Sequence record: NC_052656.1
DNA: 64,000 nucleotides
From: Escherichia phage anhysbys
Reading direction: 5' to 3' (one strand)
Shown here: positions 40,624 to 55,122 of the stretch, one piece after another
Layout: every line of letters begins with the position of its first letter
Numbering within the stretch: the first letter of the stretch is position 1
The notes under the pieces: generated by a model
Databases searched by the model: none
What the model saw: only the letters and a program-made list of their open reading frames with translations
Told to the model about the DNA's origin: nothing
Position numbers and translations under genes: made by a program

Positions 40624-41832
40624 ATGAGTAAAGCTAAAAGTTGGGAAGAATATAAAGCAGAATGCGAGATCATAGCTCTCTCTAAAGGATATAAAATTTT
40701 AGGCCATAAAGAATGGAAAGGGTGTGAGACTAAACTCCTGATAGAATGTCCTGTGCACGGTGTATGGGATACTTGTAAAATAGCTAACTTTAAAAGTGGG
40801 AAGTCTTGCCCTTCTTGTGGTGAATTAACAAAAAGGGAGAAGAGAACGAAGAGCAGGGAGGACCAAGAGAAAGAGTGTGAAGAAGAAGCGTTAAAAAGAG
40901 GTTGGCGCTTCTTGGGTATCTACGGAGAATGGCTCAAAGCTAAAAAGACACGAGTAATCTTACGTTGTGACAGGGGTCACGAGTTTAACACATCTACCAT
41001 AGACAACTTTAAGAATAATAAACAAGGTTGTCCAGTTTGTCGTTTAGAGGATATAGGTAAACACCATAAGCTTTCAGACGATCAGCACATACAAGATTTC
41101 ATGCGTACGGGTGTGTTTCCCGAAGGCACTACCTTCACTAATACAGGGGAAAGAGCTGGGAGGAGCGAAATACTTTGGAGTGTATTTTGCCCTATCTGTG
41201 CTATAGATGAGTTTTCCAAAGCTGGGGTAGGAACGGGATATTTTATCGGTAGAGGTAGTTCATTAAAACAGGGTATGCGCCCTTGTCGTTGTTCTGCCAG
41301 TTACAAATATTCTGAAGAAGAGATGACATTTAGAGCAAAAAGTGACGTAGAACGTAGAGGGTACGTGTGGTTGGGGTGGATCGGGAAAGCTTCTATACTT
41401 GGGGATTTTGAATATGGTTGCAAGGATCATGGGAAACATGTGTGTAGTGCTAATAATTGGTTAAATAAGGGGTGTGGTTGCCCTGGTTGTGCAGGTATGA
41501 ATCAACAACAAGCCTACATTAATTATATTTACGATGAGCAAGATATTATCTGTGCACTGAAGTTTGGTATTGCTAATAATAGTGATCGCCGTATCAAAGA
41601 ACAAAATAGTCGTAATGTGTTTACTATGAAACAGAACCAAGTGTGGCACTTCCCTACTGTGAAGCAATGCAAAGATGCAGAGAAGCGTTGTAAACGTGTC
41701 CTTAACACGGAAGCGGTGAGCAAATATGCTATGCCAGATGGCTACACAGAAACAGTAGAGTTATCTTGCATGGCCTCAATACAAAACATTTATAAACTTT
41801 ATGGTGGAATATTACAGGAGGAAACATGTTAG
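40624..41832 (+). CDS. Multi-zinc-ribbon protein with C-terminal T5orf172/GIY-YIG-like domain
   Basis: Four C..H/C ... CPxC modules; C-terminal YINYIYDE...KFGIANNSDRRIKEQ. Confidence 0.4.
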   Translation: MSKAKSWEEYKAECEIIALSKGYKILGHKEWKGCETKLLIECPVHGVWDTCKIANFKSGKSCPSCGELTKREKRTKSREDQEKECEEEALKRGWRFLGIYGEWLKAKKTRVILRCDRGHEFNTSTIDNFKNNKQGCPVCRLEDIGKHHKLSDDQHIQDFMRTGVFPEGTTFTNTGERAGRSEILWSVFCPICAIDEFSKAGVGTGYFIGRGSSLKQGMRPCRCSASYKYSEEEMTFRAKSDVERRGYVWLGWIGKASILGDFEYGCKDHGKHVCSANNWLNKGCGCPGCAGMNQQQAYINYIYDEQDIICALKFGIANNSDRRIKEQNSRNVFTMKQNQVWHFPTVKQCKDAEKRCKRVLNTEAVSKYAMPDGYTETVELSCMASIQNIYKLYGGILQEETC

Positions 41833-42204: not shown

Positions 42205-42393
42205 ATGGCACGTTTAGCAGATAACCCTGTATTCTACCCCGTTCTTGATCTTTATGATGAATTGACATATGTTGTGGAGCGGTATAATTACAATGAAGAC
42301 CTCTTGGAGACAAACCTTAAAGTAGTTCTGATGAAAGCCTATCAGCAAGGGCAACGTGAAATTTTGGAGAGTATGAAAAATGCGAATAACTGA
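42205..42393 (+). CDS. Hypothetical small protein
   Basis: RBS aaaggagaaact ATG. Confidence 0.35.
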   Translation: MARLADNPVFYPVLDLYDELTYVVERYNYNEDLLETNLKVVLMKAYQQGQREILESMKNANN

Positions 42394-42922
42394 TGAATAT
42401 GTATTCTTCTTTTCACATAAAGATGTGTTTAGTAATTGGTATATTGCACCCTTTACAGAAACCGAACCAGGTTACAATCAGACATTTAATTGTGTCGAAC
42501 AATACATGATGTGGCGTAAAGCTTTGCTTTTTAATGATCACAACACTGCACAGGCTATTCTGACTCATAGTTTGATACGGAAAGATGAGAAGATCCAAGC
42601 TTATTACAAACGTATGGGTAGGGCAGTGTCAGATTTTGATAACAACGTATGGGAAGAGAACCGTGAGCGTATTGTTATGCGAGGTTTATGCTTGAAATAT
42701 GTACAGAATCCAGATTTGTATGCAGACTTACACCTTTACCAATACAAAACGTTTGTTGAAGCAAGTCCTTACGATAAGGTTTACGGTATTGGAATGGGAA
42801 TGTATGAACCAGGGGTGCTAAATCCGGTCAACTGGAAAGGGCAAAATCTTTTAGGTAAATATCATAACAAACTGATCGAAATACTTTTCCCAGACAAAAT
42901 ACCGCAGAGACGATATTTGTGA
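42380..42922 (+). CDS. NADAR-domain protein (YbiA-like)
   Basis: VFFFSHKDVFSNW, CVEQYMMWRKA, DKVYGIGMG, GQNLLG align with the E. coli YbiA pattern. Confidence 0.6.
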   Translation: MRITDEYVFFFSHKDVFSNWYIAPFTETEPGYNQTFNCVEQYMMWRKALLFNDHNTAQAILTHSLIRKDEKIQAYYKRMGRAVSDFDNNVWEENRERIVMRGLCLKYVQNPDLYADLHLYQYKTFVEASPYDKVYGIGMGMYEPGVLNPVNWKGQNLLGKYHNKLIEILFPDKIPQRRYL

Positions 42923-42976
42923 TATTTTAACTTTTTTCATTTTTAGAACAAAGGCGTCACTTTGTAGCACAGAAAT

Positions 42977-43011
42977 AAGGCTCCTACAGCACCGTAGAGA
43001 GCCTATTATTT
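42977..43011 (+). terminator. Terminator after the NADAR gene
   Basis: aggctcctac...gtagagagcct stem then attattttg. Confidence 0.45.
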
Positions 43012-43162
43012 TGTCCTATACAAACCCTTGTCTTTTTCAGTTTGCATCACTAGGATTCGATCTGAGTGGGTTCCTGAAGGTCTGCCAATAAGATTAAAGG
43101 TTATCTCAAATTCCCATTACCTATTATCTCAAAAATCCCTCAAATTATTTAAACTTTTTAAG

Positions 43163-43350
43163 AATTTACAAAAGTGAAAGTTGAAAACCAAAATTTAAAG
43201 TTTAGGAAAATTATCTTAAAATGTTAGATACAAAACAAAACTCAAAAGTCAAGGAAAATTTTAAAAATTTTGCGCGCCCACAGTATTTAAAGTTTTTTTG
43301 CTTTTACAAAAATGAAAGTACAAAAGCAAAATTTAAAGTTTACAAAAATT
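43163..43350. repeat. AT-rich direct repeats (about 45 bp, two full copies plus one partial)
   Basis: ttacaaaagtgaaagttgaaaaccaaaatttaaagtttaggaaaatt vs ttacaaaaatgaaagtacaaaagcaaaatttaaagtttacaaaaatt. Confidence 0.6.
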
Positions 43351-43390
43351 TATGCAGATGGGGATGAGAAGAGTTCTCATGTGGAAATGC

Positions 43391-43469
43391 AAATGATAAT
43401 GATTCGCATTTAGGTTTATAAATGAGAATGATTCTTATTTAATAAAGTAAATGATAATCATTCTCATTT
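43391..43469. promoter_or_regulatory. Three Fur-box-like palindromes at 29-bp spacing
   Basis: aaatgataatgattcgcattt / aaatgagaatgattcttattt / aaatgataatcattctcattt; core AATGATAATCATT identical to the Fur box consensus GATAATGATAATCATTATC. Confidence 0.45.
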
Positions 43470-43727
43470 AGAGAATGACGCGCAGGGGCGGTGTTTGTCT
43501 CGCGCTCCCGTGTCCCCTCGCCATGTAATAAGAATAACAGATCCAACCAGGAAAGCAAGCGATTATTTTATCTTTACATTTCTTTACGAATATATAGCGC
43601 CCAGCCTACCGGCGATCAACCTTCCAACCAGTGCCCCTGGTATGTTAGCCCCGCCTTTACGCCGTGGGGTGGCGCTTCCTCTTCTGTATGTAAAACAGTA
43701 TAAGCCCTATCCCTGGGCTTGTCAAGA

Positions 43728-43994
43728 TTATTTTTTGTTTTCTTGCCAGGTCAGGACACCTAGCCAAAAATGAATATCACCTTTTCCCCAATGTGGTATA
43801 TTGCTTTCTTTCCCACCTTCACGCGCCCAGGTAAAACCGCCCGTGTAACTTTGTAATTGATAACTATCCTCGACCTTATAATCTGATAGGTTGAGAACGG
43901 TTTCAACCTTTAAGCCCGTTGCGCTTGCTACCTGGTGTACCGTGCCGCCTTGCCAGCCCAATGAGTGCATAAGGTGTAATGTAGTAGTTGTCAT
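43728..43994 (-). CDS. Hypothetical protein, isolated minus-strand gene in GC-richer segment
   Basis: 88-aa ORF. Confidence 0.35.
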   Translation of the reverse strand: MTTTTLHLMHSLGWQGGTVHQVASATGLKVETVLNLSDYKVEDSYQLQSYTGGFTWAREGGKESNIPHWGKGDIHFWLGVLTWQENKK

Positions 43995-44103
43995 GGTATC
44001 GCCCTTTCTTTGTTGTGCGCCCTGGTTGGCGCGGTAGAAAGATGATAGCCTTTTCCTTTATATATAGCAAGCAAAAAGAAAATAAAAAAGATTGAAAAAG
44101 TGG

Positions 44104-44132
44104 TTGACGTTCCTCACCTGGTAGCGTAGTAT
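44104..44132 (+). promoter_or_regulatory. Sigma70-like promoter TTGACG-17-TAGTAT
   Basis: Upstream of 44268 gene. Confidence 0.4.
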
Positions 44133-44267
44133 TCATCTTGTCGAGGGGGGCGCGGCACAACGACAATAAACAACAGGAGGGCGCAATGTAGGACGGGCAA
44201 AGGTGAGGATCTCCATAATCCACCGTCAACCAACAAAAAACATCATTCATCACCTGGAGTTAAAATC

Positions 44268-44465
44268 ATGGCAACATTGCACATAGTAGCGAAAGCAGGA
44301 CAAATCAGCGTCGTGGTAAACGGTTTTACTGAGTTCAGTCATCCCCAGGATGATCATGAAACGGTTTTATCTTTCATTGATTCCCTGTTAGAAATGGGAG
44401 TCATTACAGAAGACCAGCACGCTACAAAGTGCAAGCGCGTTAATCAAATTGCAGGGATAGAATAA
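44268..44465 (+). CDS. Hypothetical small protein (array gene)
   Basis: 65-aa ORF. Confidence 0.45.
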   Translation: MATLHIVAKAGQISVVVNGFTEFSHPQDDHETVLSFIDSLLEMGVITEDQHATKCKRVNQIAGIE

Positions 44466-44471
44466 AAAGTA

Positions 44472-44530
44472 TTGACAACAAACAACAACCTGATAAGATG
44501 TATCACATAGGGCGGGAAGTGGTTTCCCGC
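44472..44530 (+). promoter_or_regulatory. Promoter-stem-loop cassette
   Basis: TTGACA, TGaTAAGAT extended -10, hairpin gcgggaa-gtggt-ttcccgc. Confidence 0.6.
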
Positions 44531-44555
44531 TCGTAACAGAAGAGAGATTATCATC

Positions 44556-44828
44556 ATGGCATCATATAGCGCAACAATGATCGTAGCTGGCACAACTGGT
44601 AAACCTATGAGCGGTGGCGGATCTTTCGCTAATATCAACATTGACGGGCGTTTATCCCTGGACGCAGCGATCACCGTGGCGCGGGAAACATTTAAGAAAG
44701 AATGTAAATTCAATAAACAAGATTATCTCGGTTTCGCTATTGAAAAAACCGCGCGTTTTGTTGATTATAAAAGCCCAAAAATGGTTGATACTACACTAAA
44801 AGCGCAAGATGTAGCGTTTTTGCTTTAA
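44556..44828 (+). CDS. Hypothetical small protein (array gene)
   Basis: 90-aa ORF after cassette and RBS. Confidence 0.5.
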   Translation: MASYSATMIVAGTTGKPMSGGGSFANINIDGRLSLDAAITVARETFKKECKFNKQDYLGFAIEKTARFVDYKSPKMVDTTLKAQDVAFLL

Positions 44829-44831
44829 GGC

Positions 44832-44886
44832 TTGACATTAACGAATAATTTGTTAATATGTTACATAAAGCGGGAATAGTTCCCGC
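44832..44886 (+). promoter_or_regulatory. Promoter-stem-loop cassette
   Basis: TTGACA, TAATAT, hairpin gcgggaa-tag-ttcccgc. Confidence 0.55.
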
Positions 44887-44904
44887 TATTTGTAAGGTGG
44901 TAGA

Positions 44905-45162
44905 ATGTTTTACATCAAATTAAAAGGTCACGTGATCGCGTTCAAAGATAACGCTTTTTACAGATTAGCAAAATATGCGTTAATACATCCCCACTATGTT
45001 TATATAAGGGGGCGTGATGAAATAAATATCTTTGATCAAACAACATGCGAGAACATCGAGATCCGCAAGGTTGGCGTACGTGATTATCGTACATCTTTCT
45101 ACCCTTGCAAGGATTCAGCAAGTCTTTTTAAAGTATGCCAATTGTTGAAAAAAGGTGGTTAA
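44905..45162 (+). CDS. Hypothetical small protein (array gene)
   Basis: 85-aa ORF. Confidence 0.5.
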   Translation: MFYIKLKGHVIAFKDNAFYRLAKYALIHPHYVYIRGRDEINIFDQTTCENIEIRKVGVRDYRTSFYPCKDSASLFKVCQLLKKGG

Positions 45163-45163
45163 T

Positions 45164-45721
45164 ATGGGCCGCGAATATGTGATCCAGTCTTGGGTAAAAC
45201 ATGAAGCAGATGATCCGCGCATCGTTCCCGATCATCTTATCGATGAATCCACGGGATATAGCGGTGAGCAAATAGGTAACAGATTAGCACGTAGTAACGG
45301 CAACGTAAAAGCGCGTTATGTGCGCCCTGGTTGGCTGGCAAATGGTAACGCTGATTTATCCAGTGCGGAAGATGCGAGCGACGGCGCGAAAGATAATCCT
45401 TTGTACAAAATTGATCCGGCTTTTCGTGTCCTGGATGAATACCCCAGCAAGATAGCGGCGCTTGATGAAGCTCTGGAAAGTAAGCGCATCACCTGGACCG
45501 CTTACAACATGGCAAAAAACGTACTTGATGGTAAATTGATTCAAGCCGAAAGAAAATTAGCCAAAATTGCAGCCATAGCCCAGGAGGAAGACGAGGAGAC
45601 AACGGAAGAGGAAGAGTACGAAGAGATCCCGCCGTTGTTGTGTGTTGATGCTTTTCCTGATTATCAGCCGACAGAGGAAGAAAAAAGGATCGCACTAGAA
45701 AACTTTGAAAATAGTCTTTGA
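45164..45721 (+). CDS. Hypothetical protein with highly acidic C-terminal region
   Basis: EEDEETTEEEEYEEIPPLL ... EEEK. Confidence 0.5.
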   Translation: MGREYVIQSWVKHEADDPRIVPDHLIDESTGYSGEQIGNRLARSNGNVKARYVRPGWLANGNADLSSAEDASDGAKDNPLYKIDPAFRVLDEYPSKIAALDEALESKRITWTAYNMAKNVLDGKLIQAERKLAKIAAIAQEEDEETTEEEEYEEIPPLLCVDAFPDYQPTEEEKRIALENFENSL

Positions 45722-45774
45722 CATATCGCCGCCACTGGCATAATATTTACCACGTAGGGCGGCAATGGTGCCGC
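45718..45774 (+). promoter_or_regulatory. Promoter-stem-loop cassette
   Basis: TTGACA-17-TAATAT, hairpin gcggca-atgg-tgccgc. Confidence 0.6.
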
Positions 45775-45803
45775 TCATAGTGAAATTATGCAAGAGGTTT
45801 ACA

Positions 45804-45899
45804 ATGATTAATAAAGAAAATAGCTTGACGGTTGGAACGATTAACGCTATCATTTTCGCCGTTCCATTTTGGGTTGTAGTAGCGGCTATTATTTTCTAA
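45804..45899 (+). CDS. Small hydrophobic peptide (31 aa)
   Basis: RBS caagaggtttaca ATG; own cassette. Confidence 0.35.
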   Translation: MINKENSLTVGTINAIIFAVPFWVVVAAIIF

Positions 45900-45908
45900 A
45901 AAATATTC

Positions 45909-45969
45909 TTGACAACGTTTTTTAATCTGATAAGATGTATCACATAGGGCGGCGGAATACTTCCCCGCC
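45909..45969 (+). promoter_or_regulatory. Promoter-stem-loop cassette
   Basis: TTGACA-16-TAAGAT, hairpin ggcggcggaa-tac-ttccccgcc. Confidence 0.55.
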
Positions 45970-45989
45970 AAAACAAAAAGGGTAACACA

Positions 45990-46352
45990 ATGAGCAAGCA
46001 AATTAATACTATCATGTTTAATCTGGTATCTTTCCGCGACGATATGAAAAATTTACCACGTGAAACGGTTGATATTCATGTTTCAGCTTATCGCGCCCTT
46101 ATTGACATGTTACCGCTAAAACGTGATCAATATGCCGCTAACACGATGCTTAATGCTATGCTTAAAAAGATGATTCAAACGGATCTCACCCTAGCGTATG
46201 AGTATCAAGGGCGCTTATATGCAACTTATAACAAGGCGGTACCTGGTCTGGGAAGTACCGAAGAGTTGCACGGCTTAAACCTGGATCAAAACACTTGGGA
46301 TAGTATGCGCCGCGTTATGGTATGGGCCGAAAGCGGTAAAATTTACGAATAA
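45990..46352 (+). CDS. Hypothetical protein (array gene)
   Basis: 120-aa ORF. Confidence 0.5.
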   Translation: MSKQINTIMFNLVSFRDDMKNLPRETVDIHVSAYRALIDMLPLKRDQYAANTMLNAMLKKMIQTDLTLAYEYQGRLYATYNKAVPGLGSTEELHGLNLDQNTWDSMRRVMVWAESGKIYE

Positions 46353-46358
46353 AAACGG

Positions 46359-46417
46359 TTGACACTGTTTAAACTTCTGGTATAGTTTACCACATAGGGC
46401 GGGAAGTGGTTTCCCGC
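46359..46417 (+). promoter_or_regulatory. Promoter-stem-loop cassette
   Basis: TTGACA-16-TATAGT (TGg extension), hairpin gcgggaa-gtggt-ttcccgc. Confidence 0.6.
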
Positions 46418-46440
46418 CAACAATGAAAAAGGTTATCATC

Positions 46441-46806
46441 ATGGCTATTAATATTAATGTTTCCGCTTATGCTACCCTGGCTGCCACGGCTAAAATTGAA
46501 TTGTCCAGCATTGAGGCGGTGCACATTAGCGCCCGTCGCTGGTTTCAACAGTCTTACGGTAACACATATTTTTCTTTAATGGTTGACGTTGAGATCGGCG
46601 GTAAACTGATCGAGGTGGTTAACGTTCCGTTTCAATATGGCTATGGTGATCATTTTGATACCGTCGCCCTGGAAGAATTTAGCAAGGTTATTAATATGGA
46701 AGGTAAAGAGTTTTCACGCGGCGCGTATCTTTCCCGTTTTTGCCGTGACAATGGGATCACTGTATACAGTCATGCGAGCGATGTTAAACGTAAAAAAGAT
46801 TTATAA
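46441..46806 (+). CDS. Hypothetical protein (array gene)
   Basis: 121-aa ORF. Confidence 0.5.
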   Translation: MAININVSAYATLAATAKIELSSIEAVHISARRWFQQSYGNTYFSLMVDVEIGGKLIEVVNVPFQYGYGDHFDTVALEEFSKVINMEGKEFSRGAYLSRFCRDNGITVYSHASDVKRKKDL

Positions 46807-46812
46807 AAAGCA

Positions 46813-46871
46813 TTGACAGCACGAATAAAAAGAGTAAACTGTATTACATAGAGAGCGGGAACACTTCCCGC
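46813..46871 (+). promoter_or_regulatory. Promoter-stem-loop cassette
   Basis: TTGACA-16-TAAACT, hairpin gcgggaa-cac-ttcccgc. Confidence 0.55.
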
Positions 46872-46895
46872 CTCACTGAAAAAGAGAGAAAAATC

Positions 46896-47135
46896 ATGGC
46901 TAAATCTAAAATGTACAACGGTCACAAAAACAAAACTCATTGGAATGTAAACCTTTGGATTAATAACGATGAATCGTTATACCGGTTGGCCCAAGATTTT
47001 ATTAACGCTAATGCTAATCGTAATGATGCGGCGCGGGATATGATGCTTTTTCTGGAACAAACTGGACAAGATAAAACGCCAGACGGTTTCAAATATAGCA
47101 CTACTGCGATCCGTGCCGCGATGGTTGGAATGTAA
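46896..47135 (+). CDS. Hypothetical small protein (array gene)
   Basis: 79-aa ORF. Confidence 0.5.
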   Translation: MAKSKMYNGHKNKTHWNVNLWINNDESLYRLAQDFINANANRNDAARDMMLFLEQTGQDKTPDGFKYSTTAIRAAMVGM

Positions 47136-47144
47136 TAAAAACAG

Positions 47145-47203
47145 TTGACAACGTTTAAAATTAGTGTAAGATGTATCACATAGGGCGGGAAGTGGTTTCC
47201 CGC
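47145..47203 (+). promoter_or_regulatory. Promoter-stem-loop cassette
   Basis: TTGACA-16-TAAGAT, hairpin gcgggaa-gtggt-ttcccgc. Confidence 0.6.
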
Positions 47204-47225
47204 CAAAACAGAGAGATTAAAGATT

Positions 47226-47453
47226 ATGGCTATCAATATTGTTCGCGTATCTGGCACCGTTGGCACTTCCCAGGTCATTGCCGTTGTAACAAACAAAAAG
47301 ATTAATGATGTATGTGAGATCTTGAATAAGTGGGCTGTTGCTAATTTTGGGGAATATGCAAGCGTTGAGTACATCGAATCCTACCAGGTGCCAACCATCA
47401 GCCTAACCGATCTCAACGTTGATCGCCTGTTATGCCTGGACGAATTAATCTGA
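47226..47453 (+). CDS. Hypothetical small protein (array gene)
   Basis: 75-aa ORF. Confidence 0.5.
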   Translation: MAINIVRVSGTVGTSQVIAVVTNKKINDVCEILNKWAVANFGEYASVEYIESYQVPTISLTDLNVDRLLCLDELI

Positions 47454-47463
47454 AAAAGATTGT

Positions 47464-47520
47464 TGACACCGGAAAGAAAAAGAGTAAACTGTATTACGTA
47501 GGGCGGCAATGGTGCCGCTC
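47464..47520 (+). promoter_or_regulatory. Promoter-stem-loop cassette
   Basis: TTGACA-16-TAAACT, hairpin gcggca-atgg-tgccgc. Confidence 0.6.
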
Positions 47521-47543
47521 ACAACAGAAGAGAGATTATTACG

Positions 47544-47759
47544 ATGGCCAATATCCGCACACTGTTAAAAAATGCAAGTCAAGTTTTATTTTCAGATGAC
47601 GAGTATTTCAATAAAGACATTACAGGCGTAAAAAATCTTAAAGATGTAAAGGATGTGATAGGTATTCGCGGATCTTTACGTAAAGGTGACTACTACGGCA
47701 ATAAAGTACAATATAAATTAAATCAGTCTTATGATTTTACTTTGACAATTATTTCATAA
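47544..47759 (+). CDS. Hypothetical small protein (array gene)
   Basis: 71-aa ORF. Confidence 0.5.
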   Translation: MANIRTLLKNASQVLFSDDEYFNKDITGVKNLKDVKDVIGIRGSLRKGDYYGNKVQYKLNQSYDFTLTIIS

Positions 47760-47764
47760 AACCG

Positions 47765-47827
47765 CTTGCAATCTTAATAAAATAAAGTAAACTGTATTAC
47801 ATCAAGGCGGCGGAATGGTCCACCGCC
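47765..47827 (+). promoter_or_regulatory. Promoter-stem-loop cassette (TTGCAA -35 variant)
   Basis: TTGCAA-17-TAAACT, hairpin ggcggcgga-atgg-tccaccgcc. Confidence 0.5.
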
Positions 47828-47851
47828 TAACAAAGAGAAGAGGAAAACACC

Positions 47852-48019
47852 ATGATCACTTTCGCTACCCGTGAAGCCGCTCGCAACGTTGCCCGTAAAG
47901 TTAACGCCGCCAACCTGGGCGCTACGTTTAAAGCACCTGTAAAAGATGAATCAGGAAAATGGATCTTCCCTGGTCTGCGTCACGCTGATAAGCTAGGCAC
48001 TTTAAGCCTTAAAAAATAA
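47852..48019 (+). CDS. Hypothetical small basic protein (55 aa)
   Basis: RBS agaggaaaacacc ATG. Confidence 0.4.
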   Translation: MITFATREAARNVARKVNAANLGATFKAPVKDESGKWIFPGLRHADKLGTLSLKK

Positions 48020-48022
48020 TCG

Positions 48023-48060
48023 TTGACTTTTCGTTATAGCGCCTTATAATGGGCGCTATA
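48023..48060 (+). promoter_or_regulatory. Consensus promoter TTGACT-16-TATAAT embedded in a DNA palindrome (operator-like)
   Basis: tatagcgcc TTATAAT gggcgctata inverted repeat brackets the -10. Confidence 0.5.
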
Positions 48061-48093
48061 GAGAAGAGAAACCACTACTGACAAGGAAACACC

Positions 48094-48315
48094 ATGATCA
48101 CTTTCGCTATTGTCGCCGTTGTTGCTGGTCAAGTTTACGTAAACGATACATTCACCACAGAAGACAAGGCCGCAGGAGATATAACCGCCGTTTACAACGA
48201 GTGCAAGGCAGTAGAAAGGATGTTAGCGCCTTGTATGTTAATGAGTGAACGCCAGGACGGGATAACAGTGTTTACTAACATTGAGACAGGGTACCAAATG
48301 GTAGTAACAAAATAA
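48094..48315 (+). CDS. Hypothetical small protein (array gene)
   Basis: 73-aa ORF. Confidence 0.45.
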   Translation: MITFAIVAVVAGQVYVNDTFTTEDKAAGDITAVYNECKAVERMLAPCMLMSERQDGITVFTNIETGYQMVVTK

Positions 48316-48318
48316 AGC

Positions 48319-48375
48319 TTGACACGGATTTAATTTTCAGTAAACTGTTACACGTAGGGCGGGAATAGTTCCCGC
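48319..48375 (+). promoter_or_regulatory. Promoter-stem-loop cassette
   Basis: TTGACA-16-TAAACT, hairpin gcgggaa-tag-ttcccgc. Confidence 0.6.
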
Positions 48376-48393
48376 TAAAAAGAGAGAAAAACC

Positions 48394-48747
48394 ATGAAAG
48401 CACAAAATGCAATTAAAGAGTACATCCTTGCCGCTATCGATTTTAATGATTACGGTATTACAACCGAAAAAGAGAAGATCGCGGAATTGATGCGCCGTTT
48501 TAATTCCGAGTACTGGTACCCTGATAACCAATCACGTTTTAATTATAGTATTGTTAAAGCACTTGCATCATGGTTACAAGGTTTGCCATCAGATATTAAT
48601 ATCGCTTTCGAATATTGGGAAATTGATCGCTTGTTAACATCCTGGGGATACATTAAAGAGAATAGCAGCGATGATAAAATCCAACGAGAAAGGGAAAATT
48701 ATTGGCTTTATATTGCAGGCGTGATCCTTGCTTGCTCTTATGAATGA
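48394..48747 (+). CDS. Hypothetical protein (array gene)
   Basis: 117-aa ORF. Confidence 0.5.
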   Translation: MKAQNAIKEYILAAIDFNDYGITTEKEKIAELMRRFNSEYWYPDNQSRFNYSIVKALASWLQGLPSDINIAFEYWEIDRLLTSWGYIKENSSDDKIQRERENYWLYIAGVILACSYE

Positions 48748-48753
48748 TAAACC

Positions 48754-48806
48754 TTGACAATTTTACAAAACAGTTTAAATTAATAATATAGCGGCAATGG
48801 TGCCGC
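48754..48806 (+). promoter_or_regulatory. Promoter-stem-loop cassette
   Basis: TTGACA, AT-rich -10, hairpin gcggca-atgg-tgccgc. Confidence 0.5.
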
Positions 48807-48826
48807 TCATATAAAGAGGAAACAAA

Positions 48827-48973
48827 ATGAATACATCTAATCGCGCAGAAAAAATCCAATCTTCCAAGATCCGCAAGGCCTGGAACGAGGAAGTGATCCG
48901 CAAAGGCGACAAGCGCAATAAAACAAAGCGCGGGAAGAGTGACAAATATAATTGGATGGATTTAGAGGATTAA
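48827..48973 (+). CDS. Small basic protein (48 aa)
   Basis: RBS aaagaggaaacaaa ATG; followed by terminator. Confidence 0.4.
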   Translation: MNTSNRAEKIQSSKIRKAWNEEVIRKGDKRNKTKRGKSDKYNWMDLED

Positions 48974-48980
48974 CATAACA

Positions 48981-49007
48981 AGGGCGCACCAAGCGCCCTT
49001 TCTTTTT
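48981..49007 (+). terminator. Rho-independent terminator (same sequence as 53865-53890)
   Basis: agggcgc-accaa-gcgccct then tttcttttt. Confidence 0.7.
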
Positions 49008-49028
49008 ACATGTAGAGGATAAACAAAG

Positions 49029-49214
49029 ATGACTTTAAGCGAGCTTAAAACAGCCTACAACGCAACGTTAAAAATAGCCGTGCGTTACCGTGATGCGTAC
49101 GGTTTTATCGCGCAGGGCGTGATCCTGGGCTTTTCTGACGATGGTTTGATCTATGTTGATGCACATTATAACAAGGTAAAACCTGAAAACGTCATTAGCA
49201 TAAAATATCTTTAA
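49029..49214 (+). CDS. Hypothetical small protein (array gene)
   Basis: 61-aa ORF. Confidence 0.45.
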   Translation: MTLSELKTAYNATLKIAVRYRDAYGFIAQGVILGFSDDGLIYVDAHYNKVKPENVISIKYL

Positions 49215-49220
49215 AAGTGG

Positions 49221-49280
49221 TTGACACCATAACCGGACCTGTTAAACTGTATTACATCAGGCGGGGAATAGTTCCCCACC
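49221..49280 (+). promoter_or_regulatory. Promoter-stem-loop cassette
   Basis: TTGACA-16-TAAACT, hairpin ggcggggaa-tag-ttccccacc. Confidence 0.55.
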
Positions 49281-49299
49281 ATACAAAAAGGTAAATATT

Positions 49300-49506
49300 A
49301 TGATCACCGCAAAACAAGAGAAAATCATTATCGACGTTGCAGCCGTTGCCGCTATTGCTATTATTGGATCTTATTATGATACCCGTTTCCCGTCGGCTAT
49401 GCATGAGATCGCCGCCGTTGCATCAGTTGGCGTACTGTTTTACGTTGGTAAACGCTATTTATCACCAATGATTAACAAGCTGACACCGTGGAAAAATAAA
49501 GGTTGA
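49300..49506 (+). CDS. Small membrane protein (array gene)
   Basis: Hydrophobic IIIDVAAVAAIAIIG. Confidence 0.45.
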   Translation: MITAKQEKIIIDVAAVAAIAIIGSYYDTRFPSAMHEIAAVASVGVLFYVGKRYLSPMINKLTPWKNKG

Positions 49507-49558
49507 TCCTGTTTTATATTGTGTTATAGTTATCGTGTAGGGCGGCAATGGTGCCGCG
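49503..49558 (+). promoter_or_regulatory. Promoter-stem-loop cassette (TTGATC -35 variant)
   Basis: TTGATC-16-TGtTATAGT, hairpin gcggca-atgg-tgccgc. Confidence 0.5.
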
Positions 49559-49577
49559 CCCCTTTGAGGATGCAATC

Positions 49578-49862
49578 ATGAGTAAAGCTAACACCGTGCT
49601 AATGTTTTCCCTGATTAATGATCCCGCTTACTTGTCCAACATGACGCAGGAGGGTAACACATTAACGGCAACATTCACCAATAAGCTTGACCGGGTGATC
49701 ATCATCTCACTGAAAACAGTTAGTAAAGGCTTTTACTCGTTAGCTTATCATTGGATCACCGATACCGATGAGACAAGCCAGGACTATAGCGCCCCTTTCC
49801 CTGAATCAATGGCACGGGAGATCATCGCCGCCGTTGTAAATGATGGTTTGTTTACTGCATAA
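49578..49862 (+). CDS. Hypothetical protein (array gene)
   Basis: 94-aa ORF. Confidence 0.5.
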   Translation: MSKANTVLMFSLINDPAYLSNMTQEGNTLTATFTNKLDRVIIISLKTVSKGFYSLAYHWITDTDETSQDYSAPFPESMAREIIAAVVNDGLFTA

Positions 49863-49880
49863 AATAATTTAGAAAAAGGC

Positions 49881-49937
49881 TTGCAATCATTTTGAGATAG
49901 TGTATATTTAATTCATAGGGCGGCGGGAATAGTTCCC
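49881..49937 (+). promoter_or_regulatory. Promoter-stem-loop cassette (degenerate)
   Basis: TTGCAA-16-TATATT, hairpin gggaa-tag-ttccc. Confidence 0.4.
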
Positions 49938-49960
49938 AAAGCAAACGAGAGGATTACACG

Positions 49961-50080
49961 ATGAGCAAGTACACAGTAGAATACACGGTAGAAAATCCGG
50001 CAGTATCCGAAGGTAAAAAGATGACATTTGCCATCAGTATAATCGCTTTCGTTGTCACTATCTTATCAATCATCTTATAA
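49961..50080 (+). CDS. Small membrane peptide (39 aa)
   Basis: RBS gagaggattacacg ATG; hydrophobic C-terminus. Confidence 0.35.
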   Translation: MSKYTVEYTVENPAVSEGKKMTFAISIIAFVVTILSIIL

Positions 50081-50090
50081 GGTGCACACC

Positions 50091-50252
50091 ATGAAAACAA
50101 CAGATATTATCAAAGAGATCGCCCATGCCGCTGGCGTTGAGATCGAGGAAGTGATCGCGCTCAATCTTACAGAAAACGATCTGCGCAACTATGAAGCGGA
50201 AAGCGTGAAAGCAAGCGGCGCGGTCCTGGTATATGATCCGGCTAACAAGTAA
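50091..50252 (+). CDS. Hypothetical small protein
   Basis: 53-aa ORF. Confidence 0.35.
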   Translation: MKTTDIIKEIAHAAGVEIEEVIALNLTENDLRNYEAESVKASGAVLVYDPANK

Positions 50253-50261
50253 GGGGATAAC

Positions 50262-50372
50262 ATGAATCCGAAAGATATGCAAGCATGGAAAGGGTACGAC
50301 GATCTAAGCGCCTTGCGCAATAAGTCAAGCCGTAACCTTAGACGGTTGGAAGCAAAGAAAAAGAAAAAATAG
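50262..50372 (+). CDS. Small basic peptide (36 aa)
   Basis: RBS aaggggataac ATG. Confidence 0.3.
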   Translation: MNPKDMQAWKGYDDLSALRNKSSRNLRRLEAKKKKK

Positions 50373-50373
50373 T

Positions 50374-50430
50374 TTGACAAGTCCGCCTAGTCTGATAATA
50401 TGTATCTTGTAGGGCGGCAATGGTGCCGCT
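50374..50430 (+). promoter_or_regulatory. Promoter-stem-loop cassette
   Basis: TTGACA-16-TGaTAATAT, hairpin gcggca-atgg-tgccgc. Confidence 0.6.
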
Positions 50431-50450
50431 CACAAGAAGAGAGAAAAATC

Positions 50451-50735
50451 ATGAAAATCACAAAAAGCCTAACTAATTATGCAGCACGTCGCGGATTATG
50501 TTTAACCGTTGAAAACTTAGGGAAAGAAGACTTTTTGTGTTTTTGGGAGCTTGAAAATGATTGCGAGTGGATGTTTTCTTATTCTATCTGCGAAGATCAA
50601 AACGGTTGTTTGTTAACCTGGCGCGGTAATATCTATTTACCGGAAGAAATTAAAGAAGAGTTACCAGGTACGATCATGACAGAGAGACAGCTTAAGGAAA
50701 TGATTAATTTTGTAGGGCAAAACATTAAAAAATAA
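50451..50735 (+). CDS. Hypothetical protein (array gene)
   Basis: 94-aa ORF. Confidence 0.5.
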   Translation: MKITKSLTNYAARRGLCLTVENLGKEDFLCFWELENDCEWMFSYSICEDQNGCLLTWRGNIYLPEEIKEELPGTIMTERQLKEMINFVGQNIKK

Positions 50736-50736
50736 T

Positions 50737-50797
50737 TTGACAGCACGCAAACAACGTAGTAAAGTTTACCACATAGGGCGGCGGAATGGTCCACCGC
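50737..50797 (+). promoter_or_regulatory. Promoter-stem-loop cassette
   Basis: TTGACA-17-TAAAGT, hairpin ggcggcgga-atgg-tccaccgc. Confidence 0.55.
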
Positions 50798-50820
50798 TCA
50801 CAACAGAAGAGAAACAAATC

Positions 50821-50991
50821 ATGATCCCGACTATGTTTTATGTATCGCGCAAAGGTCACAATATTTTTTGGTCTGAAGATTTAAATGAAGCTATGACGTT
50901 TGCCCGTGATCGTGTTGCTATCGGTGGCGTTAACATCACCGTAACCGATGAAAATGGCATTGAATACTATAACGGCGACGATGAAGAATAA
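50821..50991 (+). CDS. Hypothetical small protein (array gene)
   Basis: 56-aa ORF. Confidence 0.45.
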   Translation: MIPTMFYVSRKGHNIFWSEDLNEAMTFARDRVAIGGVNITVTDENGIEYYNGDDEE

Positions 50992-50999
50992 TTAATGAG

Positions 51000-51020
51000 G
51001 CGGGGGAGTATTCCCCGCCG
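51000..51020 (+). promoter_or_regulatory. Promoterless intergenic stem-loop of the cassette type
   Basis: ggcggggga-gta-ttccccgcc, no -35/-10 upstream, no U-tract. Confidence 0.4.
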
Positions 51021-51038
51021 TCAATAAAGAGGTAAATC

Positions 51039-51308
51039 ATGAAAATATCATTGGACGTTGCAATCAAGGCCATCGAATCCGGTTACATCCTGGTAAAAGA
51101 TGATAAGGCTAAAATAGTGCATCATGTTAACAAGGAAACAGGCGAAAGCATGATCACATATAAAGCCGCCTACTTTCTCCAATCAGTAGCAGATCCGCGC
51201 GTACAACGCCAGGTTATGGCGGCTATTGCTAAAAAATTATGTGCTTTACAGGGTACAAGTTTTAACGAGATCGCCCCGTGTTTTGAGTGGTCAAGCTTGA
51301 AAAAATAA
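51039..51308 (+). CDS. Hypothetical protein (array gene)
   Basis: 89-aa ORF. Confidence 0.5.
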   Translation: MKISLDVAIKAIESGYILVKDDKAKIVHHVNKETGESMITYKAAYFLQSVADPRVQRQVMAAIAKKLCALQGTSFNEIAPCFEWSSLKK

Positions 51309-51309
51309 T

Positions 51310-51371
51310 TTGACAACAATTATAAATCGGGTAGAATGTATTTCGTAGGGCGGGGCAATAAAGCAACGCCC
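51310..51371 (+). promoter_or_regulatory. Promoter-stem-loop cassette
   Basis: TTGACA-16-TAGAAT, hairpin gggcg...cgccc. Confidence 0.5.
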
Positions 51372-51389
51372 ATTAATGAGGGTAGAATC

Positions 51390-51494
51390 ATGTTAGAGAA
51401 AATTTTCACGGTTGTAATAGTGGGCCTGGCGTTATCGGTTGGAGTGGTTGCAACTATGGCTAACATGATCCTATCTTCCCACGGTATCGGTTAA
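51390..51494 (+). CDS. Small membrane peptide (34 aa)
   Basis: MLEKIFTVVIVGLALSVGVVATMANMILSSHGIG. Confidence 0.35.
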   Translation: MLEKIFTVVIVGLALSVGVVATMANMILSSHGIG

Positions 51495-51504
51495 GGTGAA
51501 ACAA

Positions 51505-51720
51505 ATGATCACGAACAAAACAGGCAAAACGGAATTTTTACGCGGCTTACAAGTTGGTAAGCCTGAGATCTGGCATTGCACGAAGTCCGCGCATAATGAA
51601 ATGAAAGATTTTACCGCTACTTTACAACGTGTTAAAATATCTATCACACAGAAAAAAGCCTTGTTAGTAGTAGAAAACGAGATCCCGCAAACTATTATTA
51701 TTGTCGAGCGTACAGCATGA
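51505..51720 (+). CDS. Hypothetical small protein
   Basis: 71-aa ORF with RBS aaggtgaaacaa. Confidence 0.45.
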   Translation: MITNKTGKTEFLRGLQVGKPEIWHCTKSAHNEMKDFTATLQRVKISITQKKALLVVENEIPQTIIIVERTA

Positions 51721-52103
51721 AAACAGAAATCATTATTGAAATCATCAACGGCTATAAAGAAGCCTTTATTTTTGCTGAATCAGCAAGGGATCATGAAGGT
51801 AATTTTATTGATAACTTAGACGATTATGATTTTTCTCCTAGCGCGGATCAACGGATCGCACAGGATGTAACAGCCTTTATTAATGCTAATCTTGCCGCTA
51901 TCTCTGAGGCAATGAGCGACGGCGCAACAGCCAACCAGATCGGGAATGATTTACATTTTACCCGTAACGGTCACGGCGTAGGCTTTTGGGATCGCCCTGA
52001 AATATACACCACTAACACGGCGAACCGCCTAACCAATGCAGCTAAGTTTATGCCGAACGTGTCGGCTTACGTTGGTGAAGATAATTTTATTTATATTGAA
52101 TAA
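51717..52103 (+). CDS. Hypothetical protein
   Basis: 128-aa ORF, ATGA overlap. Confidence 0.5.
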   Translation: MKTEIIIEIINGYKEAFIFAESARDHEGNFIDNLDDYDFSPSADQRIAQDVTAFINANLAAISEAMSDGATANQIGNDLHFTRNGHGVGFWDRPEIYTTNTANRLTNAAKFMPNVSAYVGEDNFIYIE

Positions 52104-52109
52104 AAAGTA

Positions 52110-52166
52110 TTGACACAGATCGCCAGTGTGCTAATATTTACCACGTAGGGCGGCAATGGTGCCGCT
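52110..52166 (+). promoter_or_regulatory. Promoter-stem-loop cassette
   Basis: TTGACA-16-TGcTAATAT, hairpin gcggca-atgg-tgccgc. Confidence 0.6.
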
Positions 52167-52187
52167 CCCCGAAAAAGGTAAAACATT

Positions 52188-52379
52188 ATGAAAACTATCA
52201 GCTACCTGGAATCGAATAACATGTTTTTTGCGCCCGTTGATGAAATCATCGAAGCATTAAACAACGAGGAAGGGATCAATGGTTTATCTTATAGCCAGCT
52301 TTTAGGAATGGTTGCAGCAAATGAGGAGCTTGCTTACTATGTTGAAAATTTTGATGAAGCTGTAATCTTTACAAAATAA
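52188..52379 (+). CDS. Hypothetical small protein (array gene)
   Basis: 63-aa ORF. Confidence 0.45.
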   Translation: MKTISYLESNNMFFAPVDEIIEALNNEEGINGLSYSQLLGMVAANEELAYYVENFDEAVIFTK

Positions 52380-52382
52380 TCC

Positions 52383-52439
52383 TTGATCTAATCTCTCAGA
52401 TAACTTATATTTAATGCGTAGGGCGGCAATGGTGCCGCC
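52383..52439 (+). promoter_or_regulatory. Promoter-stem-loop cassette (TTGATC -35 variant)
   Basis: TTGATC, TTATAT, hairpin ggcggca-atgg-tgccgcc. Confidence 0.5.
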
Positions 52440-52457
52440 GATAATGAGGAAAACAAA

Positions 52458-52757
52458 ATGGAAACTATCGCTATTGTTACCGTAGAAAAACTGGTTGTTG
52501 GTGATGTATTCGCGTTAATGGTGCCTAACAGCAGCAAGCTGGGCGCTTATGAAGTAATGGATCATAAAAATGAATCATTTGGCGACGGTTGCACAATGGC
52601 GGTAAAATCTTTAAAGGATGGAATCATCCGCCAGGCTAACTGGCACAAAGGGAATCAAGTCGGTTTAATATCAGCTAATTTCTTGCCAGAAGAGCAAACA
52701 TTAGATCAACTATCAGGCGGTAAGACGTTAGCCGAACTACTGGAAACAGCGATCTAA
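52458..52757 (+). CDS. Hypothetical protein (array gene)
   Basis: 99-aa ORF. Confidence 0.5.
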   Translation: METIAIVTVEKLVVGDVFALMVPNSSKLGAYEVMDHKNESFGDGCTMAVKSLKDGIIRQANWHKGNQVGLISANFLPEEQTLDQLSGGKTLAELLETAI

Positions 52758-52765
52758 TCGACAAG

Positions 52766-52781
52766 GGGCGGCAACGCCCCC
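52766..52781 (+). promoter_or_regulatory. Promoterless intergenic stem-loop
   Basis: ggggcg-gcaa-cgcccc. Confidence 0.4.
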
Positions 52782-52810
52782 ATTAAACGCAATAGGAAGA
52801 GGATAGACAC

Positions 52811-53095
52811 ATGAAAAAGATGATCGCAGTAGTTGCCCTGGTTGTTGGTATTAACGCGCCTGTAATGGCGAAAGAGTTGCCAGAATCCATCACGTTAACC
52901 GATATTAACGCAGTGAATCGGATCGGTGTTAATTATCGCCTATGCCTTGCCGCTAAAACTTTCCAGGACGGCACAACAGAGTACTACGGATTCGAGGGTA
53001 TCCGCTGCGGTGAGCTTTCACGCGACCTTAAGGAAGATCCAGACCTTGAGGCCATACCGATGACCGTAAACGGTAAAGCCCACGTAAACCGCTAA
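52811..53095 (+). CDS. Secreted small protein
   Basis: Signal peptide MKKMIAVVALVVGINAPVMA. Confidence 0.5.
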   Translation: MKKMIAVVALVVGINAPVMAKELPESITLTDINAVNRIGVNYRLCLAAKTFQDGTTEYYGFEGIRCGELSRDLKEDPDLEAIPMTVNGKAHVNR

Positions 53096-53097
53096 CC

Positions 53098-53232
53098 ATG
53101 AGAAAGGTAATCATCACAATGGGGATCGTAGTAGCAACGCTGGCGCTTATCCCTTTCATGGTTGAATATGTGCTGATTAATGTTGTCCTGGTAGTCAGTG
53201 ACCTATTGGAAACGGTTGGCACCTGGTTTTAA
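53098..53232 (+). CDS. Small membrane peptide (44 aa)
   Basis: Hydrophobic; followed by weak terminator. Confidence 0.35.
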   Translation: MRKVIITMGIVVATLALIPFMVEYVLINVVLVVSDLLETVGTWF

Positions 53233-53406
53233 GATAATAAATAGGGCTTGCAATAGTCCTATTTTTTGTTATACTTATTGAACGGGCGGCACCTGGGAGC
53301 AGGGGAAGATAATCACCGGAAGACCCCGCTATATATTGATAACTAACGCCTATCAAACAACAAAACATCAAAGGAACAAACTATCAAATCTTTACAATTC
53401 TACCTA

Positions 53407-53467
53407 TTGACACCGGATCACGCTTACATTATTATTTATCACGTAGGGCGAGCAATACAGCAAGCCC
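53407..53467 (+). promoter_or_regulatory. Promoter-stem-loop cassette (degenerate hairpin)
   Basis: TTGACA-17-TATTAT, then gtagggcgagcaatacagcaagccc. Confidence 0.45.
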
Positions 53468-53484
53468 ACAAAGAGGAAAAGAAG

Positions 53485-53853
53485 ATGAGCAAATCAGCAA
53501 TTAAAGCAGTTGAAAAAGCGCAAGAAGTGATCGCAACGTCTACCACTGGCGCAAAGGTTAATCTGATCGGTTATCTGACAGATGAAACTATCCGTAAAAA
53601 TTGGCGTAATGCTGATTTACTGGCTTGCTTATTGATTAATAGTGTCGCTAATGCTTTCCAGTGTGAAACAGCCGAGAGCCTGGAGGAAAACTTGTTTGAT
53701 AATATGGATCAAGCCATTGAAACCTATATACAATCAAACCTGGATAGCTGGAACAGTAAAACATGGCCAGACAGTTTACGCGATACAACTGATCAACTGA
53801 TCCGCCTTGCCGTGATGGTTGAACGCGATAACGTTTACAACAGCACAAAGTAA
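53485..53853 (+). CDS. Hypothetical protein (last array gene)
   Basis: 122-aa ORF with RBS aagaggaaaagaag. Confidence 0.5.
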   Translation: MSKSAIKAVEKAQEVIATSTTGAKVNLIGYLTDETIRKNWRNADLLACLLINSVANAFQCETAESLEENLFDNMDQAIETYIQSNLDSWNSKTWPDSLRDTTDQLIRLAVMVERDNVYNSTK

Positions 53854-53864
53854 GATTATACAAG

Positions 53865-53890
53865 GGGCGCACCAAGCGCCCTTTCTTTTT
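53865..53890 (+). terminator. Rho-independent terminator closing the array
   Basis: gggcgc-accaa-gcgccc then tttcttttt. Confidence 0.7.
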
Positions 53891-54923: not shown

Positions 54924-54943
54924 AATAATAATCATTCTCATAT
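54924..54943. promoter_or_regulatory. Fur-box-like palindrome
   Basis: aataataatcattctcatat. Confidence 0.35.
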
Positions 54944-55101
54944 GAATAATAGTCTGCTTGTCATGAGCGGGATTAGTTGACATTGTTCCGTCATATGATG
55001 AGGTTGCCAACCTATTGATAAATAAGTGTTTGTGTGATTTATAATCAAGTGGCCCACCTTGTCGCTATGTTGGCATGAGCCTTGCATAAGTCATTGAATA
55101 C

Positions 55102-55122
55102 GAATGATAATTATTCTCATTC
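55102..55122. promoter_or_regulatory. Fur-box-like near-perfect palindrome
   Basis: gaatgataattattctcattc. Confidence 0.4.

Follow-up and report, generated by a model that had tools for sequence, protein, structure and literature searches.

The AT-rich direct repeats of Escherichia phage anhysbys (record NC_052656.1) form an iteron-like array within a composite non-coding region that has no description in the literature searched, and comparison with related phages indicates that a phage protein is their most likely ligand, perhaps in the context of a replication origin. The array keeps its copy number, period, and position between two phage subfamilies, even if its sequence differs between them. 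All positions given below refer to the window, which is the whole stretch of 64,000 nucleotides (64 kb) that was analysed, read on one strand from 5' to 3'.

By sequence similarity, the window is part of a Phapecoctavirus genome (subfamily Stephanstirmvirinae), that of a virulent, phAPEC8-like coliphage of about 150 kb. A megablast search with 42900-43600 matched 121 phage records, the best of them with 97-99% identity over the full length (phAPEC8-like phages such as ESCO5, ZCKP1, and phAPEC8 itself), and the genus and subfamily were taken from the classification of the inspected records. Coliphages of the phAPEC8-like and rV5-like groups have a broad host range and are met repeatedly in collections for therapy and biocontrol; to our knowledge, neither group has a defined origin, cis-regulatory hub, or non-coding RNA.

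Genomic setting of the repeats

The repeats are housed in an 805-bp ORF-poor gap (42923-43727). To the left of the gap, a plus-strand operon encodes an AAA ATPase with weak similarity to DnaC or a clamp loader, a CapR/HNH-type endonuclease, two small genes, and a NADAR-domain gene (42380-42922, plus strand), which is the last gene of the operon. An intrinsic terminator, read from the sequence as a stem AGGCTCCTAC...GTAGAGAGCCT followed by ATTATTTTGT, lies at 42978-43014 on the plus strand, and the annotations of phAPEC8 (ARNold) and ASO2A (TransTermHP/WebGeSTer) also have a terminator at the homologous position. The right border is formed by a minus-strand gene of 88 aa (43728-43994, phrog_19316), which is annotated in ASO2A, tuntematon, phiWec190, and JohannJBalmer, and which shows no similarity to the small gene found at the same place in Mydo. 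Within the gap, an ORF of 48 aa (43221-43367) was rejected as a coding sequence, because it is not kept in frame in phiWec190.

Two observations concern the neighboring genes. The CapR-domain HNH-like endonuclease gene (40624-41832, phrog_681) differs in length between close relatives (phAPEC8, 1185 bp; ASO2A, 1461 bp; tuntematon, 999 bp) and is missing in phiWec190, which is the pattern expected of a mobile homing-type endonuclease. On the other side of the gap, the plus strand from 44100 to 53900 carries small genes and about 20 near-consensus promoters (TTGACA, 16-nt spacer, TAAnnT), most of which have a small ORF behind them. The annotation of ASO2A shows, at many of these sites, a promoter with a hairpin immediately after it, an arrangement reminiscent of the promoter-stem-loop cassettes of T4-type phages.

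Structure and composition of the AT-rich repeats

The preliminary description of this DNA had reported two copies and a partial third of an AT-rich, 45-bp direct repeat, located in non-coding DNA after a terminator and before Fur-like sites. The place, the setting, and the base composition are all borne out by our repeat search, which recovered two direct copies of 72 nt on the plus strand (43141-43212 and 43279-43350), 82% identical without gaps and 138 bp apart from start to start, and a degenerate middle copy between them (43232-43260, plus strand, 79% over 29 nt), with the terminator to the left and palindromes at 43365-43471 to the right. The repeat unit is nevertheless longer than had been proposed, the 45 bp corresponding to the 3' two-thirds of a unit of about 70 nt.

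Both full copies have the same internal organization. A first box, R1 (TATTTAAACTTT at 43146 in copy 1 and TATTTAAAGTTT at 43284 in copy 2), is followed at a distance of exactly 25 bp by a second box, R2 (AAAGTGAAA at 43171 and AAAATGAAA at 43309, respectively), and the unit is closed by a terminal box (AATTTAAAGTTT at 43192 in copy 1, and at 43330 in copy 2). The consensus of the intact unit is R1 TATTTAAASTTT, R2 AAARTGAAA 25 bp further on, and a second TTTAAAGTTT box at the end, the sub-boxes being 25 bp and about 46 bp apart. Exact TATTTAAASTTTTT, ACAAAARTGAAAGT, and AAAATTTAAAGTTTA boxes are confined to the repeats within the 64-kb window. In an alignment with the three-copy array of Justusliebigvirus, the middle copy falls on the second copy, which is intact there.

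Chance is excluded as the source of the repeats. Ungapped direct repeats in 43100-43360 reach a best score of 34, compared to 10.3 ± 1.4, and never more than 16, when this AT-rich stretch was shuffled 300 times with its dinucleotides preserved. Tandem Repeats Finder did not call the repeats, since the copies are interspersed rather than arranged head to tail.

The stretch 43102-43351 has a GC content of 0.228, the minimum among all 150-300 bp stretches of the window, in which 1-kb windows range from 0.35 to 0.44. It includes the second least stable 100-bp duplex of the window, and no duplex of the size of the whole repeat array is less stable anywhere in the 64 kb. A curvature scan with a wedge model predicted the repeats themselves to be ordinary, with a modest bend at 43071-43200 only (2nd percentile). 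In blastn searches, the region gave zero matches in complete E. coli genomes and one match among plasmids, a 137-kb record that appears to be an rV5-like phage filed as a plasmid.

Elements flanking the repeats

The left edge of the non-coding region is marked by two GATATTT boxes and a degenerate TATTTTAACTTTTT box (42912-42936, plus strand) at and just past the NADAR stop codon, the degenerate box being R1-like with one mismatch (at 42923). Two TATCTCAAA boxes then precede the repeats (at 43102 and 43125, spanning 43102-43133 on the plus strand), and a third copy lies at 43212-43220. In tuntematon and phiWec190, three TATCTCAAA copies are found at matching relative positions, and 4-5 matches with at most one mismatch occur in Mydo and BIS47, two Mydovirus phages. 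The GATATTT and TATCTCAAA boxes are conserved in position, on the left side of the non-coding region, across Stephanstirmvirinae and Vequintavirinae; they fit no DnaA or IHF consensus and no known binding protein.

To the right of the repeats, four palindromes (TGAKAATNATTMTCA, consensus AAATGAGAATCATTCTCATTT) follow each other with a 29-bp spacing (43365-43471), starting at 43365, where the palindrome is degenerate, 43394, 43423, and 43452. They are Fur-box-like in the 7-1-7 sense and match the Fur consensus TGATAATnATTATCA at 12-13 of 14 positions. The whole window contains 35 Fur-box-like palindromes at three mismatches or fewer, where 14.5 ± 4.2 are expected. Further copies recur in and just before the terminal repeat of the genome (54099-54113, 54159-54173, 54926-54940, and 55105-55119), so that the palindromes bracket the 11-kb early-gene block. 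According to blastn, the palindromes are common to Vequintavirinae and to the non-coding region of the first-step-transfer DNA of T5-like phages.

Next to the palindromes lies a GC-rich, near-invariant non-coding element of about 225 nt (43472-43696), assigned to the minus strand from the adjacent promoter alone. Its identity is 96% with phiWec190 and 91% with Justusliebigvirus, and drops to 44-68% in the flanks. Single-base indels between lineages make a coding function unlikely. The element contains a hairpin ACCAG...CTGGT with compensatory changes and a variable loop. RNAalifold, applied to both strands in 6-7 lineages, found few compensatory pairs, and single-sequence folds were no better than those of shuffled sequences (z -1.6 and -0.9). 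A search of 42800-44400 in Rfam at E<=1 returned just two sub-threshold chance matches, and an exact-pattern scan of IMG/VR for the element retrieved three contigs. The element is probably an undescribed phage non-coding RNA or an element acting at the DNA level.

The element is preceded by a sigma-70-type promoter, TTGACA-N17-TATACT (43697-43725, minus strand), which agrees with the consensus at 11 of 12 positions and would fire leftwards to the palindromes and the repeats. A promoter-like site is present at the orthologous position in JohannJBalmer (11/12), 05F01 (12/12), and Mydo (9/12). The promoter lies about 350 bp to the right of the array with the 225-nt element in between, and a weak terminator-like hairpin (43457-43479) also separates it from the repeats.

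Conservation of the region in related phages

We compared the locus in 11 genomes of Stephanstirmvirinae and Vequintavirinae, i.e. the window and ten others: tuntematon and phiWec190 (Phapecoctavirus), JohannJBalmer, alia, and BME3 (Justusliebigvirus), Klebsiella phage 05F01 (unassigned Stephanstirmvirinae), JeffSchatz (Vequintavirus), PBES02 (Certrevirus), and Mydo and BIS47 (Mydovirus). A motif map shows one collinear order in all 11, with GATATTT boxes followed by direct repeats and then by palindromes. The GATATTT boxes are present at the left edge in every genome (1-4 copies), and the number of palindromes varies from two to five. The TATCTCAAA boxes ahead of the repeats are found in Phapecoctavirus and Mydovirus and not in every lineage. 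The anchor CGCCGTGGGG of the conserved element lies 203-210 bp past the last palindrome in all genomes except JeffSchatz, in which the element is replaced and the anchor absent, and a minus-strand promoter follows the element in all four lineages scored.

The direct repeats behave differently from these elements, since their number and period are kept between the subfamilies and their sequence is subfamily-specific. In Stephanstirmvirinae, the units are of the type found in the window, with TATTTAAASTTT followed by AAAATGAAA (R-type). Phapecoctavirus has two copies at 138 bp (2 x 69) and the decayed middle copy, Justusliebigvirus has three copies spaced by 67 and 75 bp, and 05F01 has two copies at 123 bp. 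In Vequintavirinae, three copies spaced by 63-78 bp are found in Mydo, PBES02, and JeffSchatz; these V-type units are built of TCTCGATC and ATCGTATT, which are exactly 25 bp apart in Mydo and PBES02. In JeffSchatz, one spacer separating two of these repeats contains TCGATAAATT, which matches the motif reported for high-affinity nucleation of H-NS, although this could be a coincidence.

Individual copies can be followed across genera by their flanks. The first copy is flanked by CAAATTATTTAAAC... and the last one by CC(C)A..TATTTAAAGTTTTTTT, the latter being common to copy 2 of the window and to the last copy of Justusliebigvirus and of 05F01. The retention of these distinctive flanks indicates that the duplication is old and has been maintained, and that it predates the split of the three Stephanstirmvirinae lineages. 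Identity with phiWec190 is 78% for copy 1, 83% for copy 2, 64% for the middle part, and 52% for the left spacer, and identity with Justusliebigvirus is 65-68% for the full copies (67-68% for copy 1), 59-61% for the middle part, and 44-51% for the left spacer; only the ranking of these values, in which the full copies exceed the AT-rich DNA beside them, is meaningful, because the high AT content inflates them all.

Our search of the literature on Fur boxes, origins, and non-coding regions in these phage groups found no description of this region beyond a box labeled 'non-coding' on the map of rV5. That box is marked as ORF-free, and no repeats, palindromes, or function are described for it (Kropinski et al. 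2013, PMC3606486). The box, which is collinear with the JeffSchatz locus, probably represents the homologous region in Vequintavirus.

A probable protein-binding array and a possible replication origin

The number, spacing, and position of the repeats are constant while their sequence follows the phage lineage, which is what would be expected if they were bound by a phage-encoded protein, and is how iterons behave. The palindromes, on the other hand, are constant across phage groups of one host and this suggests that they bind a host factor. E. coli K-12 was the isolation host of JeffSchatz as well as of the Phapecoctavirus and Justusliebigvirus phages, which all have the palindromes in common but carry unrelated direct repeats. 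Moreover, the region has a terminator on one side and a minus-strand unit on the other, and no protein-coding gene is placed where the array could regulate it, so it looks like a self-contained cis-acting site. The repeats had been likened in the preliminary description to the iteron-like arrays of replication origins, packaging sites, or regulator-binding regions. The binding-array part of this proposal gains from the comparison, as the same slot holds two or three lineage-specific repeats spaced by about 63-78 bp in Phapecoctavirus, Justusliebigvirus, 05F01, and three Vequintavirinae genera, and the origin part can be kept in a tentative form.

Our preferred reading, which is a tentative one, is that the array serves for protein binding and unwinding at a replication origin within a conserved cis-acting control region; that it is a functional protein-binding array of some kind appears considerably more probable. 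In such an origin, a phage-encoded DNA-binding protein would recognize the bipartite R1/R2 boxes on the three units, its binding would distort the AT-rich DNA and lead to its opening, and transcription from the conserved promoter, or from a promoter embedded in the palindromes, might activate or prime initiation. Several features are in favor of this reading. The array comprises at least three direct units, two intact and one decayed here, and three intact in Justusliebigvirus and in three Vequintavirinae genera. It coincides with the lowest GC content of the window for stretches of 150-300 bp (43102-43351), as an unwinding element would, conserved boxes and probable host-factor sites flank it, and no protein-coding target of regulation is in evidence. 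A conserved promoter is directed at the array, and in T5-like phages the equivalent slot, upstream of the same palindromes, is occupied by paired DnaA boxes.

Other features speak against an origin. The units, about 70 bp long and 63-78 bp apart, differ from the iterons of classical origins, which are 17-22 bp long and helically phased. No initiator gene is recognizable among the neighbors, and Pfam and PHROG assignments of ten neighbors in the window and of six in relatives include no initiator or DNA-binding family, even if the initiator could be encoded elsewhere in the genome. The DnaA box TTWTNCACA and the IHF consensus WATCAANNNNTTR have zero matches within 42923-43727. The intrinsic curvature predicted for the repeats is unremarkable. 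The cumulative GC skew has its minimum at about 37 kb, where the gene strand switches, and not at 43.2 kb, but this skew is dominated by gene orientation; the authors of the rV5 study were likewise unable to separate skew from the direction of transcription (PMC3606486). Finally, the conserved promoter (43725 to 43697) does point at the repeats, as in a transcription-primed origin, but from a distance of about 350 bp and with the weak hairpin at 43457-43479 in between. It is the weight of these points (initiator, DnaA and IHF sites, unit length, skew, and promoter distance) against the supporting architecture that keeps the origin reading tentative.

Comparison with known origins leads to a similarly mixed picture. 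As in the iteron origins of lambda (ori), P4 (ori/crr), SPP1 (oriL), and pSC101-type plasmids, direct binding units lie beside or within the most meltable DNA, the repeat sequence co-varies with the lineage while the architecture stays, and host-factor sites may be located alongside. Unlike in these systems, the units are about 70 bp long with two or three sub-boxes, no adjacent initiator gene and no DnaA or IHF sites were found, and the flanking operators are Fur-box-like; we know of no origin with Fur boxes. The primary origin of T7 and oriF and oriG of T4 combine a promoter with a downstream unwinding element. The region likewise has a strong promoter aimed at AT-rich DNA, here a candidate unwinding element, whereas the promoter is of the host sigma-70 type and is removed by about 350 bp that include the 225-nt element, the palindromes, and the weak hairpin. 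The rV5-like phages encode a T7 gp4-like primase-helicase (PMC3606486).

A rather unlikely alternative is that the repeats are bound by a phage or nucleoid protein for architectural or regulatory purposes and are not an origin. They might, for example, seat a silencing or insulating complex that keeps the upstream operon apart from the terminal early-gene block, or be a control site for the adjacent non-coding transcript. The comparative evidence for a protein-binding array applies to it equally, and neither an initiator gene (among the neighbors) nor a DnaA box (in 42923-43727) was found. The array also sits exactly at the boundary between the plus-strand operon, closed by its terminator, and an 11-kb block in which about 20 near-consensus TTGACA-N16 promoters are found, and its extreme AT content is of the kind preferred by H-NS-type proteins, which bind AT-rich DNA preferentially. 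Nevertheless, no gene lies within regulatory distance and the sole conserved promoter is about 350 bp away, the predicted curvature is modest, and host nucleoid proteins would leave the difference in repeat sequence between phages of the same host unexplained.

It is very unlikely that the repeats are tandem sigma-70 promoters with UP-like elements, producing a rightward transcript under the control of Fur at the palindromes. Each full copy does contain TTTACA-N18-CAAAAT (9/12) with an A/T-rich TATTTAAAGTTTTT box at about the position of an UP element, and the 05F01 copies each end in TATAAT, but these weak hexamers are not conserved at orthologous positions in relatives (JohannJBalmer, 05F01, and Mydo), the Vequintavirinae units have no promoter-like content, and the early promoters of the same genome have a perfect TTGACA.

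We also give little credence to a functionless duplication in an AT-rich spacer, or to an action at the RNA level, for example as a type III toxin-antitoxin decoy like the pseudo-ToxI of phiTE. Slippage in AT-rich DNA is easy, but a neutral duplication would hardly have been maintained across genera: it predates three Stephanstirmvirinae lineages, the boxes are retained in both copies, which are 138 bp apart and not head to tail, and no copy-number change is seen among the matches listed at full coverage, with a span of 501-503 bp (64 Phapecoctavirus records cover the query). As for RNA, the relative phiTE carries non-coding antitoxin-like repeats (PMC3475682), but the repeats studied here have no Rfam match and no conserved promoter feeding them. 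Antitoxin-like RNA repeats of the ToxI or pseudo-ToxI kind were rejected, as there is no head-to-tail array of 34-45 nt units and no Rfam match, and the phiTE locus, which neighbors the terminase gene, is not homologous.

Genome ends and similarity to T5-like phages

A role of the repeats in packaging or at a genome terminus, also raised at the outset, is refuted by the location of the genome ends, which were mapped by homology. The terminal repeat of the Phapecoctavirus phage Schickermooser was described by Korf et al. as 328 bp long (PMC6563267). The two ends of its record have in common an exact sequence of 329 bp, which maps to 54850-55178 of the window with 97% identity and places the physical genome ends inside the window. 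The terminal repeat is therefore 11.5 kb away from the AT-rich repeats, which lie 11.5-11.8 kb inside the right physical end, i.e. at about 8% of the genome of about 150 kb. In BME3, which has a terminal repeat of 342 bp (PMC12210895), the homologous region is about 12 kb from the end of the record.

This position recalls T5, in which DNA entry pauses after the terminal 8% or so of the genome, carrying early genes. In blastn, 43385-43470 of the window matches T5-like phages within their left terminal repeat. The repeat-dense, non-coding Repeat Region 3 of T5 is the proposed injection stop signal, and the T5-like phages have paired DnaA boxes, 'reminiscent of oriC', upstream of the same palindromes (Davison, bioRxiv 10.1101/866236). 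The T5 palindromes are listed there as palD-palJ without a link to Fur, and neither Fur nor iron is mentioned in the preprint (bioRxiv 10.1101/866236).

We consider it quite improbable that the region is the counterpart of the T5 stop signal. Both are large non-coding regions with direct repeats and AAATGAGAATCATTCTCATTT-type palindromes at a similar distance from a physical end (about 8% here and in BME3 some 12 kb, compared to 7.9% in T5), and both border a terminal block of small early genes, which here has strong host-type promoters. However, the T5 signal is contained in a terminal repeat of about 10 kb, compared to 329 bp here, its upstream repeats carry DnaA boxes, of which no pairs are found in 42923-43727, and nine GTGCAAATCCGAC repeats follow its palindromes, while the T5-like phages are without the AT-rich R-type units and the 225-nt element. 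No ORF longer than 190 aa is found between 44 and 54.8 kb, hence no protein of the size of A1. Furthermore, the same composite region is present in Certrevirus, and for the Certrevirus phage phiTE, as for PVP-SE1, circular permutation is reported (PMC3475682), so that there would be no fixed leading end.

A broader proposal, which we consider speculative and unlikely in its full form, is that the region of about 800 bp is an unrecognized hub controlling phage replication or entry, common to Stephanstirmvirinae and Vequintavirinae and in part to the T5-like phages, and coupled to host Fur, in which the repeats would be lineage-specific docking sites conferring on each phage group its own initiator specificity. 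The region is a target that can be dissected, with lineage-specific repeats for which a phage factor is predicted, universal palindromes for which a host factor is predicted, and a near-invariant element with its own promoter. If the preferred origin reading is true, the engineering of replicons and phage genomes would be enabled; if the region is related to the injection stop, a sixty-year-old puzzle of T5 would extend to two more phage groups, with Fur as a new candidate player.

The terminal repeat and the 1.6-kb ORF-poor stretch before and within it have some features of their own. The first 100 bp of the terminal repeat (54852-54951, GC 0.18) match the AT-rich repeats in composition, and no other 100 bp in the window are richer in AT. 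By eye, the ORF-poor stretch shows A/C-rich runs of the CAACAAC type (54040-54340 and 54733-54856) and two GGGGGCG.AAAT...GGAATGTTGAGCA motifs about 65 bp apart.
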